A stretch of 64,000 nt of DNA from an uncultured Nitrososphaerota archaeon (GTDB lineage Archaea; Thermoproteota; Nitrososphaeria; Nitrososphaerales; Gagatemarchaeaceae), in assembly GCA_963703285.1 (NCBI GenBank), contig OY969807.1:1408001-1472000 (forward strand), read 5' to 3'. The notes below the pieces were generated by a model that saw only the letters and a program-made list of their open reading frames with translations, was not told where the DNA came from and ran no database searches. This document shows, piece after piece, positions 4,397 to 41,363 of this stretch; position 1 is the stretch's first letter; each line of letters begins with the position of its first letter. Made by a program: the position numbers and the translations under genes.

Positions 4397-5168
4397 TTAA
4401 AAGAGTTTCGATGGCTCGGCTCCCAGGGCGCGCCCCACGGGATCCCCGACCCGGAGGACTCCCTCGCCGATGGCGGTGCACATTACCCCCAGGTTGCTGC
4501 CGTGGACCTTCTGAATCGTCTCGAGTATAAGCTGGTCCTCCTCGATCCCGGGCTGCCTCATCGTCGTCACCTTACACCGGACGTTGGGCTTCTCGACGCG
4601 AACGCGAAGGGGCCCCATCTCCAGCTCGCTGCCGACCCAGCCGTCCTCCGGGAATCCGTCCAGGTCCCGCCCGGTGTCGACCACGATGTTGGGACGGAAC
4701 CGCCTTGCCTGGAAGTCGCCTCCGGGATGGGCGTCCCGCAAGCGTCCGAGCGACGCGGTGGTGATGAGGTGCAGCGTCCTGCCCGACTTGGCGCGAGACT
4801 CCGCGAACCTGGGGTACCTCACGAGCTCCAGTTCTCCGCCGAGGGCCGCGCTGATGTGAGAGTTCACCTCAGGGTCGCTGGAGGTGCAGACCGTGCGCCC
4901 TGAACTCTCGATCGAGACCTCGTGCACTCCCTCCGGGGGGCCGGAGAATCCTCGCCGAGAGCTCGAGCATAGTCGGACGACCGAGGGACTCCCCCCAAGA
5001 GAACCGGTAGGACTTCGGGTCGAGGACCCTCTTGGACGCGACCTCGCGGATGGCGTACAGGTGGTCCCCGGATATTCCGGTGGCCAGGACCCTGCTCTCC
5101 TCAAGCCTCTCCCCCTGGAGTCCGTTTACAGGATAGCGCCAAATCTCGGCGACCCGTCCAAGGGTCAT
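4397..5168 (-). pseudogene. MOSC-domain protein with an apparent +1 frameshift near 4950
   Basis: N-terminus IWRYPVNGLQGE..GISGDHLYAI is in one frame; C-terminus LHLITTASL..RRFRPNIVV..RCKVTT..LRVGD is in another. Removing one base at AGG-A-TTC restores a single ORF. Confidence 0.8.
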
Positions 5169-30576: not shown

Positions 30577-31296
30577 CTAACTCTTCTTGAGCTTGACGAA
30601 TTCCACGAGTCCGTCCCTGAACCTGATGCTCGCGTGGCTCCCGTTGCAGAAAGGTTTGTTGGAGGACGCCCCGCATCGGCAGAGCGTCATCCGATTTCGT
30701 ATCTCGTAGGGAGTCCCATCCTCTGACTCCACCCTGATTCCACCCTGTACGTAGAGCGGTCCGCTGCAACCCAGGGCGGGATCCTCGACCACGCCTATGG
30801 AGGGCTTGAGCTTTGGTTCAATTTCCTGCCCCGTCTTCTTGTCTTGCAAGACCAGCCTCCCCGAGGGGCAGTGGCCCTCCTCTCGGACTGCCAGCTTGCG
30901 CGCCTCAGGGTCGTCCGTCGCTTCCATCAGCCCCCAGATCTTGCCCCCGGGATCGCAAAAGCGGGCGAAAGCGCAGAGCCCTTCTGCGTCGCTCAGTGTC
31001 ATCGTCGCTCCATCAAATATGTCGGCCTGCCTTGCGTATGGCTGTCGCGTCGCAGTCTCGGTTCCGTTGAAGTGGGTGCTCGCGTGCGAGCTGTCGCAGA
31101 ATGGTTTGGTCTTTGAGCGTCCACAGCGGCACAGCTTGTACTCTCCCTTGGTCTCGAAGGTCTTCGCCCTCTTCCAGTCCCAGGAAAGGCCCTCCTCGTT
31201 GGGTGTGATGAGCTCCATGGTGAGCGGGATGCCCGCCGAGACGACGTAGGGTCCGTCCTTGGAGACGACAATCTTCCTCTCGGAGGGTTCCGCCAT
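30577..31296 (-). CDS. CDGSH iron-sulfur domain protein (two CDGSH motifs plus a central Cys domain)
   Basis: LCRCGRSKTKPFCDSSH, LCRCGASSNKPFCNGSH, CPSGRL. Confidence 0.9.
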   Translation of the reverse strand: MAEPSERKIVVSKDGPYVVSAGIPLTMELITPNEEGLSWDWKRAKTFETKGEYKLCRCGRSKTKPFCDSSHASTHFNGTETATRQPYARQADIFDGATMTLSDAEGLCAFARFCDPGGKIWGLMEATDDPEARKLAVREEGHCPSGRLVLQDKKTGQEIEPKLKPSIGVVEDPALGCSGPLYVQGGIRVESEDGTPYEIRNRMTLCRCGASSNKPFCNGSHASIRFRDGLVEFVKLKKS

Positions 31297-31397
31297 CGAT
31301 GTTCGAATCCTCGGTCCAAAAATGTGCGGTGGGTGATTAATAAACCTCCACGCGTCCAAGAGGTAATCATACATACGCGGTTGACGTGGCCGCGGTC

Positions 31398-32372
31398 ATG
31401 ACCATCCCTGGAGAGCGAGGAGGTCCGCGGGTTGTCCCGCAATCCGTGGTGGCCCCGCTGACCCGCGCTGCGATTTTTCTGGTGGTGACGGTCAACCCGG
31501 GCGCAGCGGATGCTGCGACGGTCAGGTCGCTGTGCGGGGACATCGCCGGACTCGTCCGGTCTGTTGGGGTCCGCGTCCCCGAAGCGAGCCTTTCGTGCAT
31601 AATGGCGTTCGGGTCGGTGGTATGGGACAGAGTCTTCGGCGAGTCGCGGCCTGCGGAGCTGCACAGCTTCCGGGAGATCGTCGCCGGGGAGAGACGCGCC
31701 GTCTCCACTCCCGGCGACATCCTATTCCACATAAGGGCACAGCGGATGGACCTGTGCTTCGAGCTGTCGGCCCAGATAATGAGCAGGCTCGGGTCGGCAG
31801 TCTCCATCGTAGACGAGGTGGACGGGTTCCGTTACTTCGACAGCAGGGACCTGATAGGCTTCGTAGATGGGACCGAGAACCCGAAGGGGCAGGCGGCGGT
31901 CGACGCCACCCTCGTGGGCGAGGAGGACCCCACCTTCAGCGCAGGGAGCTACGTGATTGTGCAGAAGTATCTCCACGACCTGAAGGGATGGAACGCCCTC
32001 CCCGTGAAGGAGCAGGAGGGCATCGTCGGCAGGACGAAGCTAGACGACATCGAGCTGGAGGACTCTGTGAAGCCGAGCTTCGCCCACAACGCGCTGGCGA
32101 AGGTGGTGAGGGATGGGGAGCAGGTTGACATACTCCGGGACAACATGGCCTTCGGCCAAGCGGGGTTCGGCGAGTTCGGGACGTACTTCATCGGCTACAG
32201 CAGGTCACCTGGCACGACGGAGGAGATGCTCCAGAACATGTTCGTCGGCAAGCCTCCCGGCAACTACGACAGGCTGCTGGACTTCAGCCGAGCCGTCACG
32301 GGCAGCCTCTTCTTCGCGCCCTCGGCCACCTTCTTGGAGAGGGCCTCCAAGGTCGAACGTAGGACGGCCTGA
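31398..32372 (+). CDS. Dyp-type peroxidase
   Basis: GFVDGTENP, VQKYLHD, FAHN, ILRDNM. Confidence 0.93.
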   Translation: MTIPGERGGPRVVPQSVVAPLTRAAIFLVVTVNPGAADAATVRSLCGDIAGLVRSVGVRVPEASLSCIMAFGSVVWDRVFGESRPAELHSFREIVAGERRAVSTPGDILFHIRAQRMDLCFELSAQIMSRLGSAVSIVDEVDGFRYFDSRDLIGFVDGTENPKGQAAVDATLVGEEDPTFSAGSYVIVQKYLHDLKGWNALPVKEQEGIVGRTKLDDIELEDSVKPSFAHNALAKVVRDGEQVDILRDNMAFGQAGFGEFGTYFIGYSRSPGTTEEMLQNMFVGKPPGNYDRLLDFSRAVTGSLFFAPSATFLERASKVERRTA

Positions 32373-32497: not shown

Positions 32498-34552
32498 TCA
32501 GGAGGTCGCCTGCTGGCGTCGGACATTCCTGCGCCCCTTCCTCCTTCTCACTGCCAAGAACCCCGAGACCACCCCGAGACCCGCAATCCCTCCGACCGCC
32601 GCGGCCTGAGGGAACGAGGTCGTCAGATGTTCGGCGACGCTCACAACGTCGCTGAGTGGGGCGAGGACTGGTTTCATGTAGCTGTCCACCACGTTGACCG
32701 CATCAGAGAGTGGGGCCGTCACAGGAGCGACGTACTGGTCAACGGCTTTGACGACATCGGAGAGCGTCGCCACAGCAGGAGCGACGTACTGGTCAACGGC
32801 TTTGACGACATCGGAGAGCGTCGCCACAGCAGGAGCGACGTAGGCGTCGCCTATGCTAACGGAATCTGTCAAGGGTGAGTTCACGGGAGGGGTGACTACA
32901 TCTGCCGCAGCCACCGTATCCTGAAGAGTGGCTGTTACCGTCACGCCTTGGGGATAGACCGTGAGCGTAAAGACGCCCGCGCACGGCGAGGATATGTAGG
33001 GGTAGCAGGAGGTCCCGCCGTACAGGAGAGCCTCTCCGACCATTATCGTGTAGACTCCTGGCGACACAGAGGCTGAGGCCGTTATGGCCAGCCCGAACTC
33101 CCCGAGCGGCGGGGCTCCGGACTCCTCGAAGGGGTAGAACGTCAACGAAATCCCTGGCACCGGAGGAGACACCGAGTAGGCATAGACGGCCGTCGCGGGG
33201 GCTTCGCCGATGATCGTCCCGGTGACGAGAACGGGGAAGGAGTTGCCGATTCCGGCGAAGGCGGTCCCTGAATTCGGCGTCAGGGATACCAACTCCACCA
33301 CGTCTGCAACGGGCTCGACGGTGAGCTGGTATGTCGGTCGGACGCAAGAGCCCGAGCAGTCGGTCCCCGCGACAAAGAGCTCGTCATCAACTGTGATAGT
33401 GTAGATTCCAGCTGGAGCCGCTGGAGTAACTGTGATGACCATCGTGAAGATGGTGGAGGGTGGCGATCCAACGTCGTATCCAGGGTTGAAGGAGACGGAG
33501 ACGCCCGCCGGGTCCCCGCTGACGCTGGCCAGGGGAACTTCGCCGTCGACGTAGCCTCCGCTGACCTTGGGAGTCAGTGTCGAGTAGAGTGTGCCGCCGA
33601 TGCCCCCCGTGACCTCGCCCGACGTCGCGCTGAGGGTCAGGCTCGTCACCACGTCGTTGGACTGGAGGACGATTGTGGTCGAGGTTGAGGATGAGGAGGA
33701 TGAGGAGGAAGAGGAGGAAGAGGAGGAAGAGGAGGAAGAGGAGGAAGAGGAGGAAGAGGAGGAAGAGGAGGAAGAGGAGGAAGAGGAGGAAGAGGAGGAA
33801 GAGGACACTCCGGATGGCTCCAGTGCGATTCCTACTTCGGCCCAAGTGACCGATGAATCCATCGGAAGGGTCGCCGGGAATTCCGTGGGATTGGCTGCGC
33901 CACCATTGGAGTACTCCGCTACACCCGACTCTGCGGCGTCGTTCAACGGGGTCGAGAACGTGAACCCGGTCGCCGCGGTCGGACTAGACAATTCTTGCGT
34001 CCCAATCATGCCTAGAAGAAAGGCGCCGCTCTGGAACGATACAAGTCCGGGGTATGTCACAATCGAGGAGCCCGCCCCGATGCCGGTTGCAACCCCGATT
34101 CCCGAAGAGGTAACTCCCGAAATTTCGTAGATATAGAGGGCTGACTGTATGCTTGCGTAGGGGTTACTCCAAGTTATCATGACTTCATCAGAGCCGCCAC
34201 TTGTGAGAGCGGCGTAGTATACGTAGGTGCACACAGGATCGTTGCACGTTGACCCGGCTAGAGAGTATGACGATCCCAAAGTGTCGGTCACGGAGGTAAC
34301 GGAATCACCGTAGGTTGCCACGCCTACCACGACGATGTCTCCGCTGGCCACGCCGTCAGTGAATGTCGCCGACAGAGCGCACGACATCGACTCCCCGCAA
34401 CCGCTACTGGTCTGCTGGACGAGCGACGAATCGGCTCTAACCAGTGGGGCGTTAGCCAGCACCGAGACAAGAAAGATCAAGAAGACGACCAGGACTGCGA
34501 GCGCGGGGAACCTGAATCCTACAGGTTTTCGCGGCTTATTTGACTGGGTCAT
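32498..34552 (-). CDS. Secreted, C-terminally anchored surface protein with a poly-Ser linker and 18-aa DxxxxxD repeats
   Basis: Signal peptide, beta-rich domains, poly-Ser, ATLSDVVKAVDQYV repeats, C-terminal TM plus RRRK. Confidence 0.8.
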   Translation of the reverse strand: MTQSNKPRKPVGFRFPALAVLVVFLIFLVSVLANAPLVRADSSLVQQTSSGCGESMSCALSATFTDGVASGDIVVVGVATYGDSVTSVTDTLGSSYSLAGSTCNDPVCTYVYYAALTSGGSDEVMITWSNPYASIQSALYIYEISGVTSSGIGVATGIGAGSSIVTYPGLVSFQSGAFLLGMIGTQELSSPTAATGFTFSTPLNDAAESGVAEYSNGGAANPTEFPATLPMDSSVTWAEVGIALEPSGVSSSSSSSSSSSSSSSSSSSSSSSSSSSSSSSSSSSSSSSSTSTTIVLQSNDVVTSLTLSATSGEVTGGIGGTLYSTLTPKVSGGYVDGEVPLASVSGDPAGVSVSFNPGYDVGSPPSTIFTMVITVTPAAPAGIYTITVDDELFVAGTDCSGSCVRPTYQLTVEPVADVVELVSLTPNSGTAFAGIGNSFPVLVTGTIIGEAPATAVYAYSVSPPVPGISLTFYPFEESGAPPLGEFGLAITASASVSPGVYTIMVGEALLYGGTSCYPYISSPCAGVFTLTVYPQGVTVTATLQDTVAAADVVTPPVNSPLTDSVSIGDAYVAPAVATLSDVVKAVDQYVAPAVATLSDVVKAVDQYVAPVTAPLSDAVNVVDSYMKPVLAPLSDVVSVAEHLTTSFPQAAAVGGIAGLGVVSGFLAVRRRKGRRNVRRQQATS
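32722..32842. repeat. 54-bp tandem repeat (about 2.2 exact copies) within the surface protein gene
   Basis: CAGGAGCGACGTACTGGTCAACGGCTTTGACGACATCGGAGAGCGTCGCCACAG at 32722 and 32776. Confidence 0.9.
33702..33800. repeat. (GAGGAGGAA)11 microsatellite encoding poly-Ser
   Basis: Eleven perfect 9-bp units. Confidence 0.95.
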
Positions 34553-34704
34553 GGTGTCACTTCCGGCCAGCCCAGAGCGACAGGAAACATTATGGCGCCA
34601 TCGGTGGCGAAGGTGAACAGCTCGGCCGCGCAGGCTAAGGCTCGGTCCGTCGCCAGCAAACTAATGCAGGAGACTCCAAGCCAGCCCGTCTCACTCAACT
34701 CATC

Positions 34705-35472
34705 TCAGGATACCGTGAACTGGATCGTGACGAGCATCGAGTCTCCGGCGGCGACCGAGATGGGAGTCGGGACGGTGAGAATGTCGAATGCAGCGTTACC
34801 TATACCATAGCTCGGGTTCGCCATTTGCGAGAGAGGTCCAGCGCCGGCCTCCAGGACCGCACATGGAGTTTGCGATATGTCGTAGATGCAGTTAGTCGCT
34901 GTGAATGTCGTCGGGCCGAATGTCGCCTGGGTTATCCAGCCACTACAGAGGGGTCCCGTGGGGGCCGGGGTGCCAGCGTTCGGGTCACACCCCAGCGGTG
35001 TGAGGATATTCGTTGCCGCAGCGTTAGCCTGACATCCGGTGACGCTGAAACCGTTTTCCGTTTCCGCTCCGGCGTTCTCTGAACAAGTTCCGCCTATGAA
35101 GGGGTAGCTCGCCGGAGCGAAGACAATCGCGACGCCGTTGATGAACGAGGAACAGGAGCCGTTAGCAGGCGTCGAAGCTGGTCCTACGGGGTCGGTGCTG
35201 CCTCCAACAGACCCCGGTATGCACGCAGCGATTGCGTTGACCGCGATGTTGGTCAAGGGGTCCGGACCGGTCCACGTGGATACCACCTTGCCGTCCGGCG
35301 CCACGACCTTGATCGTCTCCGTGCCGCTGAGGTACAGACCGTCAGTCACTTTTCCGCTTGTATTCGTATTGAGAACGTTCGACAACACGGTCGAACCGAG
35401 AAGGACACCGATAGCTAGACTTCCGACAACGACAAGCGAGACCTTCGCCTTGGACGAAAGCTGCAAATGCAA
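34705..35472 (-). CDS. Secreted/anchored Cys-containing beta protein, partner of the adjacent surface protein
   Basis: N-terminal hydrophobic segment; GTETIKVVAPDGKVV..LTN..TF..LEAG..ISVAAGDSMLVTIQFTVS. Confidence 0.7.
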   Translation of the reverse strand: MHLQLSSKAKVSLVVVGSLAIGVLLGSTVLSNVLNTNTSGKVTDGLYLSGTETIKVVAPDGKVVSTWTGPDPLTNIAVNAIAACIPGSVGGSTDPVGPASTPANGSCSSFINGVAIVFAPASYPFIGGTCSENAGAETENGFSVTGCQANAAATNILTPLGCDPNAGTPAPTGPLCSGWITQATFGPTTFTATNCIYDISQTPCAVLEAGAGPLSQMANPSYGIGNAAFDILTVPTPISVAAGDSMLVTIQFTVS

Positions 35473-39620: not shown

Positions 39621-39708
39621 TGGTGCGGGGGGTGGGATTCGAACCCACGAACCCCTAAGGGATTGGAGCCTCAGTCCAACGCCGTTGGCCATGCTGGGCG
39701 ACCCCCGC
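39621..39708 (-). tRNA. tRNA-Leu(GAG), CCA encoded, no intron
   Basis: GCGGGGG..TTGGA-CTGAGGC-TCCAA, long variable arm, GTGGGTTCGAATCCCAC. Confidence 0.95.
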
Positions 39709-39803: not shown

Positions 39804-39899
39804 GCCGGCGTAGCTCAGTTGGTAGAGCGTGCGCCTCGTAAGCGCAAGGTCGAGGGATCGACACGGCTGGGAGCCGCGATAAACCCTCCGCCGGCTCCA
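39804..39899 (+). tRNA. tRNA-Thr(CGT) with a T-loop intron (39863-39882, position 59/60)
   Basis: TGCGC-CTCGTAA-GCGCA; perfect BHB GAGGG-ATCG-ACA-CGGC..GCCG-CGAT-AAA-CCCTC; CCA encoded. Confidence 0.92.
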
Positions 39900-39928: not shown

Positions 39929-41029
39929 CTAGGGTCTAGGTACCTCGAGCAGGAGAGTTCTAATCACTTCGTCGTAGTCTACAAAAGAGAGAATTGCGTA
40001 GCCGCGAGCCATCCAAGGATTGTACTTGAAATCCTGTCGCAGCTTTCGGGTGAGTTTAAGGAGTTCTTCCTGAATGCAGAGTCCAAAGTCACGTCTTCTC
40101 CTAGTTGATATCATCCTCGTTTGAATTGCGACTTGAGCGTCTGTCGAGTAGAGGTCCTTACCACCCCTTGAAGGTTCTTCGATGACCAACTTTCGCAGGC
40201 CTAGATACTTCGCCCCGCACAGGTACGCTATCTCGGAACCTATTCGACCTTGGTCATAGACAGAACCTTCACGGAGCATCGTGCCTTCTAACTCTCTGTG
40301 CAGAATGACCGAGTCAACAATCATCGCATACGAACACTTTCCCTGAACCAAGTTGAGGTGCCTTCCCGAGTAACTGCGAGGCTGGACCAACCCGTAGAGT
40401 TCCTCAGAAGGAGGTTTGGCATAGCAGGTTGATACCGCGCTTTGCCGGCCATAATGAACCCTCAACCTGAATCCATCGAAGGAGAGCAGACTAACCGATT
40501 CACATCCAGCTCCACGATCGATTTGAATCTGTGGTGGATTCAATCCATCGTGTCGAATTCTCATCTTCCACACCCTCCCGATGTAATCGGCGAGTTTGAA
40601 CTGTAGGTAAACTCCTCCGTGTTGGTTGCTAACTCCTGGATATGCGTCGATAATGCCAGTCATTGTGAAGTAAGATAGGTTAGCTAGTGGATGGTCCTGA
40701 ACGACTTCTATCCGAATCTTATCATCAGCTATTGCGAATGATTCGAGTACGACCCGGTCCGCCGCCCATCTCACATTGCGGCGGTTCTCAAGCTCGAAGC
40801 TTGGGATGCCTGAGACAAACGATTCCCTCGACAACTGTTCGAGGGAGATTATGACGTCTTCTCCTGGAGCCGATCGGTCTCTCGGAAGCACAGGTCTGAA
40901 CTCGTTTCCTCCTTTGTACGTGTGATAGCTGAAGAACGAGCCTCCAGAATCGTGTACCTCAATCTTGACTGCGATTTGGTCATGATTGGACGAGGTGGAG
41001 GTTTCACGTACAATTCTCGAGTTTGACAT
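39929..41029 (-). CDS. Hypothetical low-GC protein with a possible restriction-endonuclease-like C-terminus
   Basis: Long ORF with atypical composition; GRIGSEIAY..EEPSRGGKDL..VAIQTR. Confidence 0.55.
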   Translation of the reverse strand: MSNSRIVRETSTSSNHDQIAVKIEVHDSGGSFFSYHTYKGGNEFRPVLPRDRSAPGEDVIISLEQLSRESFVSGIPSFELENRRNVRWAADRVVLESFAIADDKIRIEVVQDHPLANLSYFTMTGIIDAYPGVSNQHGGVYLQFKLADYIGRVWKMRIRHDGLNPPQIQIDRGAGCESVSLLSFDGFRLRVHYGRQSAVSTCYAKPPSEELYGLVQPRSYSGRHLNLVQGKCSYAMIVDSVILHRELEGTMLREGSVYDQGRIGSEIAYLCGAKYLGLRKLVIEEPSRGGKDLYSTDAQVAIQTRMISTRRRRDFGLCIQEELLKLTRKLRQDFKYNPWMARGYAILSFVDYDEVIRTLLLEVPRP

Positions 41030-41363
41030 ACTGTCAAGCCGGCGTGCAGAGATGAATATCCTACCGTCACGCCCGATTTTGAAAGAATGAATTGTGTGAT
41101 TTGTCTGTTCTCTGAGTTGAGCTGAATCGGGTCGGAGATTCGGAAGCGTACGAAGGTACTCGCCCCAGAAATAAAAGCACCCATACGCTGCGTATAGAGC
41201 AGCAATCCTGCCTGTTCGGACAAAACTATTAATCACAAAAATCCTGAATTCCGCCCGTGAAGTAGGTGGAATTTTCGGCAAAAAGCCCTGAGCTTGGCGA
41301 CACGGAGGATTCTATCCAAGGGGATTTCGGGTCGATTCCGCTAGTCGAGAACGAACATACCCC

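Follow-up and report, generated by a model that had tools for sequence, protein, structure and literature searches.

A gene pair of a Nitrososphaerales archaeon as a probable cell-surface relative of phage rope-and-dimer fibres

What could an archaeon make of two adjacent genes, one for a small exported protein resembling a phage fibre subunit and the other for a secreted protein with regular acidic repeats? The question is raised by a 64,000-nucleotide stretch (the window) of an uncultured Nitrososphaerota archaeon of the Gagatemarchaeaceae (contig OY969807.1, positions 1,408,001 to 1,472,000), whose genome consists of 2.25 Mb in one contig. The two genes, termed A and B, are intact open reading frames (ORFs) on the minus strand, separated by 152 bp and each single-copy in the genome, and our ORF check bore out the coordinates assigned to both in a preliminary description of this DNA. 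We found that A and B are a real, conserved two-gene module and that A, judging from its predicted structure, is likely the bead of a fibre of the phage beads-on-a-rope type. Together they are probably a cell-surface version of the phage rope-and-dimer fibre, forming a short membrane-anchored stalk that holds out the head domains of B.

34705..35472, minus strand: gene A, 255 aa (253 from the second TTG) with 8 Cys; predicted fibre bead of the gp8/gp105/gp118/whisker/gp80 fold
32498..34552, minus strand: gene B, 684 aa; predicted membrane-anchored rope protein with head domains

Predicted fold of protein A and its phage relatives

The AlphaFold model of A (predicted local distance difference test, pLDDT, 77.7; predicted template modelling score 0.71) comprises a helix at residues 7-34, a confident hairpin at 51-70, a helix at 75-84 and a beta core, and matches the bead fold (N-terminal helix, small sheet, incomplete sandwich) at Z 5.3-7.7. 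In an unbiased search of 48,161 PDB representative chains, four reached Z of at least 5, all of them virion tail or neck parts; a second comparison gave eight PDB entries above Z 5, all phage tail or neck parts and mostly of the bead family, the next entry being at Z 3.5. Specifically, the matches were to the HFTV1 baseplate hub (9h4p; Z 7.7, root-mean-square deviation (rmsd) 3.3, 137 aa), the phage 812 arm segment (9fko; Z 7.6, rmsd 3.7, 126 aa; second entry 9euj, Z 7.2), A511 gp105 (Z 6.9, rmsd 3.9, 127 aa), T4 gp8 (Z 6.1, rmsd 4.3, 139 aa), Bas63 (Z 5.9, rmsd 2.9, 96 aa), Sf14 (Z 5.7) and KP1 (Z 5.3). GP4 gp80 scored only Z 3.7 in the unbiased search and the A1002 chains were absent from the output of the fold searches, neither being excluded by that. 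We give the fold evidence weight because all of the top rows are of one kind, each Z score being middling. Several proteins of archaeal filamentous viruses (SIFV, AFV1 and AFV2 relatives) were among the weak top BFVD matches of A, hinting that their terminal structures share its fold.

A itself matched neither Pfam Gp80 (PF23140) nor phrog_5417, and its connection to these families runs only via a bridge profile, A7, with 31 rows of archaeal, provirus-like and phage beads. The profile of A (A2) aligned with A7 over 70 columns (HHalign 97.2%, E 4e-11). A7 matched a 171-aa chain of PDB 26la/44nx (E 4.6e-6), taken as A1002 gp41 by its length and the entry code, as well as the HFTV1 hub, and 13 of its 31 members matched Pfam Gp80. 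In the hub (chain BD of 9h4p, a 954-aa chain; bioRxiv 2024.12.09.627619) the match lies at residues 403-508 and, more weakly, at 517-578, and the hub seems to contain fused bead-fold domains. In addition, searching another, related family with the profile of A brought up weaker relatives in 10 of its 56 genomes; six of ten such A-like proteins matched phrog_5417 (1e-8 to 1e-14 for five), and three of the ten also matched a 'tail fiber' PHROG. Language-model neighbours reached via the homologue P0017 gave a Uroviricota-rich cluster (0.94) and Gp80 (0.86, on 18% of members). Viral homologues of A thus exist, both by fold and by a two-step profile bridge, as the preliminary description had supposed.

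Several results weigh against this relationship. Every Z score was below 8, a range rated common, and the Foldseek E-values for the model were not significant; the confident A2-A7 match covers the N-terminal 70 columns only, and the full-length match between the A1-A3 profiles was weak (34%); A had no direct match in Pfam, PHROGs, NCBIfam or PDB sequences, and G000 did not match phrog_5417. In other searches, the 64-row family of A had no consistent match to known families, scans of viral contigs with A1 and with a provirus-like bead yielded no confirmed relative, and tblastn of an archaeal bead against GenBank phages gave no match, two other queries giving 2 and 5 records. Convergence, with A an unrelated secreted beta-protein, would fit both the low Z scores and the missing direct sequence match to phage families, but structure, profile bridge, language-model neighbours and gene pairing all indicate one family, and we regard convergence as improbable.

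Known phage fibres provide the precedent. Pseudomonas podophage A1002 carries 11 dimers on a rope of ~300 Å, its rope protein gp39 bearing gp40/gp41 dimers (PDB 44NX) through residues 243-468 and short extra segments, and in GP4 a separate rope protein bears 5 dimers (PMC13730344). GP4 fibre I is gp80 (PF23140, PDB 8JOU). A and B resemble this chain-like type in the bead family, linked via the profile bridge and including the N-terminal hairpin, in a separate rope gene, and in the 18-residue unit, compared with ~20 rope residues per dimer in A1002. Unlike the phage proteins, which are virion parts without signal or membrane segments, both genes here encode export/anchor segments; A is 255 aa long with 8 Cys, the rope comprises six units, and cellular genes surround the pair. 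The baseplate arm of Staphylococcus phage 812, with its gp118 dimers on gp117 linkers, A511 gp105 and T4 gp8 share the fold at Z 6.1-7.6, but are only 6-9% identical to A, begin at the equivalent of its residue ~70 and belong to contractile baseplates. The arm scaffold of 812 is strengthened by six arm-segment dimers, and its linkers occupy the gaps that adjacent dimers leave between their C-terminal strands; the arm-segment fold is likened to T4 gp8 and A511 gp105 (PMC13433997). Bas63 whisker dimers are described as wrapping the rope of the collar 'such as beads on a string' (PMC12609058); the Bas63/Sf14 collar-whisker is like A in fold (Z 5.7-5.9), its dimers on a rope correspond to the assembly proposed for A and B, and it differs in a bead of 107 aa, two dimers per collar and a place in the phage neck.

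Repeats of protein B and conservation of the pair

The docking strands predicted for B lie between its beta-rich domains and its C-terminal anchor:

34433..34552, minus strand: B residues 1-40, predicted cleavable signal peptide (PLVRA/D), similar in homologues
33809..34432, minus strand: B residues 41-248, N-terminal beta-rich head domain with no family match
33686..33805, minus strand: B residues 250-289, 40-serine linker, a 9-bp tandem array
32948..33676, minus strand: B residues 293-535, two related ~120-aa beta domains, missing in several homologues
32621..32944, minus strand: B residues 537-644, six 18-aa units, P-V-x-A-x-L-x-D-x-V-x-V-x-D-x-Y; predicted docking strands
32501..32605, minus strand: B residues 650-684, hydrophobic segment and basic tail (RRRK)

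Three features earlier described for B were present: a signal-like N-terminus ending PLVRA, six 18-aa units at exact spacing (L543, 561, 579, 597, 615 and 633), and a C-terminal anchor in which a hydrophobic segment is followed by RRRK. The last unit ends in E instead of D. The array is not a chance product: in 2000 shuffled versions of B the units never chained beyond 3, and B was the only one of 6073 ORFs in the genome with at least 4 equally spaced motifs. Among the 48 distinct units compared, conservation alternates along the sequence (A, L, D, V, V, D, Y), with Pro at the unit border; this looks like one face of a long strand, the conservation of L and D being partly set by the search pattern. 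A homologue search with the repeat region returned one match. The single-sequence fold of B residues 41-537 had a pLDDT of 39 and was excluded from the fold search, and the head domain had no PHROG match in eight homologues; its proposed likeness to the N-termini of two signal-less rope proteins (profile matches 0.2% and 14.8%) was rejected as too weak. B was also considered as an archaeosortase (PGF-CTERM) substrate and rejected, its sequence containing no PGF-type motif and matching nothing in NCBIfam.

We examined 21 loci of the A subfamily, counting the duplicates L014/L084 and L078/L079 once and leaving L013, L017, L076, L080 and L082 out of the pairing count because their contigs end in or before the partner gene. 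A repeat gene adjoined A in 15 of the 16 complete loci, and the pairing proposed earlier is therefore conserved. The partners in these 15 loci contain 3-7 units (usually 4-7) of the type D/E-x-h-x-h-x-D/E at a spacing of 16-22; the proteins range from 242 to 1225 aa, and their head domains (by eye propeller-like, PKD-like or Ig-like) are swapped while the number of units stays small. Among 97 genomes of the family, many incomplete and as kin not independent, 10 contained A; the repeat profile matched 6 genomes, every one of them among these 10, and none of the 87 genomes lacking A. Certain points reduce the force of these counts: the complete locus L036 has only 1 unit, the loci are kin and include near-copies (L081, L083), and five of the six genomes matched by the repeat profile had served to build it. 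In one locus (L012:5894-7647) an apparent frameshift, representing either sequencing error or decay, divides the B homologue into two ORFs.

The repeats of B might alternatively fold on themselves as a stalk, with A binding elsewhere or acting once as a cap or chaperone. Eighteen residues make one turn of a three-sided beta-helix, most close homologues have an exact period of 18, and the units can be read as three hexads; periods of 16, 17, 20 and 22, however, occur in homologues, a conserved Pro starts 36 of the 48 distinct units, no hexapeptide Pfam match was obtained, and repeats were not found without A in the 97 family genomes, making self-folding quite unlikely in our view. A left-handed hexapeptide beta-helix in particular was rejected on the missing Pfam match and the homologue periods of 16-22.

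According to the preliminary description, tailed phages often place a bead gene beside a gene with DxxxxxD repeats, and we saw such a pair in two of three phage loci inspected. In CV-1-33 a signal-less bead stands beside a 581-aa ORF with 8 units, and in the BcepGomr tail module gp17 (5 units) is followed by the bead gp18, also signal-less; the repeats of both are 18-21 residues long and of the D/E type. In BUCT-ZZ01 the downstream gene has no repeats by eye, and the upstream side is cut by the end of the record. The rope-like ORF of CV-1-33 (MT192033.1; L085:5455-7200) directly follows the bead gene, and the record annotates only its last 147 codons and two opposite-strand ORFs; a further 137-aa ORF at 4505-4918 is unannotated.

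Cellular setting and origin

A has 53 relatives among 1.84 billion representatives, the close homologues coming from Nitrososphaerales/Nitrososphaerota archaea, including Ca. Gagatemarchaeum stordalenia. None of the 24 neighbours matched a PHROG for virion proteins (capsid, portal, terminase or tail) or for an integrase, and the pair has neither the head-tail module nor the absence of export signals that marks virion components. Because of these neighbours and the hydrophobic segments, the pair likely works like a phage fibre and is not a virion member. The immediate neighbours in the window were absent beside the pair in 14 other loci, save propeller paralogues in two, which makes the pair a movable two-gene cassette.

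A leftover provirus tail module without cellular role would explain the patchy occurrence of A (8 of 23 genus genomes), the lack of shared flanks in 14 loci, and the drop in guanine-plus-cytosine (GC) content (0.50-0.57 at 34-42 kb) close to a tRNA gene. However, the neighbours carry no PHROG of the kinds listed above, A1 patterns found no relative in viral contigs, the membrane/export segments of A and B are missing in phage and provirus-like beads, A has 8 Cys, and intact pairs persist at 30-68% identity; we hold this to be the most improbable of the explanations considered.

Genes like phrog_5417 were found in 72 of 301 sampled genomes of the order, some provirus-like and apparently including those of ammonia oxidisers. 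They fall into two classes, signal-less in a virus-like context and signal-bearing, often beside large repeat proteins. In a quick LG+G4 tree of 60 of 88 beads (28 near-relatives dropped; 148 columns), the subfamily of A, a group set by the A2 profile, took its own side (29 rows; Shimodaira-Hasegawa-like approximate likelihood ratio test 99). Being unrooted, the tree does not tell which way transfer went; the earlier term 'domesticated' for this phage-like pair is likely apt, and we infer a virus-to-cell direction from the wide viral and narrow cellular spread.

The signal-bearing phrog_5417-like beads of other Nitrososphaerales, with giant ropes of 18-20-aa units, are likewise exported and stand beside a DxxxxxD-repeat surface protein, whereas the subfamily of A branches apart from them in the tree, escapes detection by phrog_5417, and is distinguished by its Cys-richness, by Asp-Pro at a candidate cleavage site and by short ropes. 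Those of relatives reach 14-40 or more units. We found no paper on a cellular bead-rope version in the open-access literature; what is new here is the short-rope, Cys-rich subfamily and the cleavage-site lead. At L037, L041-L044 and L087-L096, signal-bearing beads stand beside large secreted repeat proteins of 860-3800 aa, several of these genomes having two beads, often divergent; the L041 repeats have lost the Asp pattern, and in L038 and L040 the 20 kb fetched contain a bead but no rope.

Membership of the archaeal type IV filaments was also considered and rejected: A and 64 relatives had no pilin or archaellin match in Pfam or NCBIfam, and no filament ATPase or platform gene was seen among the ORFs neighbouring A and B.

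As to the locus itself, the sequencing runs containing its DNA were soil metagenomes from one study, no RNA run was among those listed, and a promoter/terminator scan gave matches at chance level only. The segment 34000-42000 of the window has a GC content of 0.50-0.57, compared with ~0.62. Besides A, it encodes a PH-like membrane protein, a VOC protein and a secreted NHL propeller, and an orphan ORF of 450 aa at 39929-41281 matched neither Pfam nor PHROGs. A probable tRNA-Thr(CGT) at 39804-39899 (plus strand), not called by ARAGORN or Rfam, has a cloverleaf fold whose T-loop contains an insertion of ~20 bases, probably a non-canonical intron, and lies head to head with a tRNA-Leu at 39621-39708. 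Just downstream of B (30577-32372), a CDGSH-like iron-sulfur protein (motif by eye) is divergent from a DyP peroxidase.

Proposed assembly of the stalk and release of A

How A would reach the rope depends on its N-terminal part:

35380..35442, minus strand: A residues 11-31, hydrophobic export/anchor segment, signal-peptidase site not clear
35263..35340, minus strand: A residues 45-70, beta-hairpin; candidate pro-region, equivalent to the first ~33 residues of A1002 gp41
35257..35262, minus strand: A Asp71-Pro72, candidate self-cleavage site, proposed from column conservation
34708..35262, minus strand: A residues 71-255, core; aligns onto residue 0-3 onward of gp118, gp105 and the Bas63/Sf14 neck chains

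The export/anchor segment earlier noted in A is present as 21 uncharged residues. The sequence pattern quoted with it (GTETIKVVAPDG, LTN, TF, EAG, ISVAAGDSMLVTIQFTVS) also occurs in A, but its EAG element is not kept in close relatives. In 59 rows of the A family, the segment has a median of 21 uncharged residues, a strict [AV]xA site is found in 7 and a loose small-x-small site in 49, and the spacer to the first strand is 8-32 residues. The segment thus has the look of an uncleaved anchor, and its lack of a clear peptidase site is a problem for a standing stalk; the preliminary description did not take up the release of A from this segment.

In the assembly that we propose, B would reach the cell surface, lose its signal peptide after PLVRA and stay attached through its C-terminal segment, and A dimers would clamp onto its six 18-residue strands, stiffening a stalk that holds the swappable head domains away from the membrane. 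By analogy with the phage fibres, A would form dimers docking by strand augmentation, approximately one per repeat because A1002 has ~20 rope residues per dimer, giving 5-6 dimers and a stalk of ~15-35 nm (our own arithmetic, from the A1002 average spacing to full extension). The beads-on-a-string surface fibre of the preliminary description is retained in its docking geometry, which has precedent in phage structures, but six repeats would make a short stalk and not a long appendage.

Alternatively, bead and rope may bind in the same way while A keeps its anchor, the rope lying flat on the membrane as a rail of tethered dimers that serves as an envelope scaffold or a clamp for B. The uncharged 21-residue segment, the rarity of strict sites and the spacer length would suit such a rail, as would the position of the repeats, which end 41-54 residues from the C-terminus of B in 10 of the 15 loci. 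On the other hand, the loose site is common, the equivalent N-terminal part is missing from the A1002 gp41 density, and the ropes of 14-40 or more units and the N-terminal repeats of L018 and L035 would be hard to lay flat, making this arrangement unlikely, although less so than self-folding repeats. The repeats of these two loci also weigh against a standing stalk next to the membrane, which because of them cannot be universal.

For the standing stalk, A would be exported as a membrane-tethered precursor and cut at Asp71-Pro72, losing anchor and hairpin. The fold matches to gp118, gp105 and the neck chains begin at A residue 68-72, corresponding to their residue 0-3, and the hairpin before residue 71 aligns with the part of gp41 that lacks density; gp41 is modelled from residue 34, its N-terminus without density 'suggesting' proteolysis (PMC13730344). 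Column 71 of the A family is Asn or Asp in all 62 non-gap rows, Asp being followed by Pro in 28 of 28 and Asn in 0 of 34, and 30 of the 31 bridge rows likewise have Asn or Asp there. Asn-directed self-cleavage is known from inteins and FlhB. Autocatalytic Asp-Pro cleavage occurs in VWD domains (PMC10880436). Against release at this site, the Asp-Pro rows are probably one clade and therefore one event, and the HFTV1 match takes in the hairpin region; conservation of residue 71 could equally be structural, and we treat self-cleavage as a lead. This release, together with a role of the stalk in adhesion or display, is what we infer with least security.

A more far-reaching version of the proposal is tentative, and we doubt it more than we believe it. 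Nitrososphaerales may have turned a phage chain-like fibre into a modular cell-surface display stalk, in which the tethered bead precursor cuts itself at Asn or Asp-Pro behind a chaperone hairpin, dimerises and snaps onto the rope; the number of units would set the length (4-7 here, tens in ammonia oxidisers), the adhesin heads would be interchangeable, and the same self-cleavage would explain the missing N-terminus of A1002 gp41.

The cleavage-site lead applies also to phage fibres, and the short version found here (six units, 185-aa core) is, unlike the giant ropes, small enough to reconstitute. If the proposed stalk is real, archaea would possess a surface structure that is built by templated strand docking, has its length ruled by repeat count and is shared with virus particles; related beads occurring in 72 of the 301 genomes of the order, apparently including ammonia oxidisers, it would therefore bear on the attachment of abundant cells.

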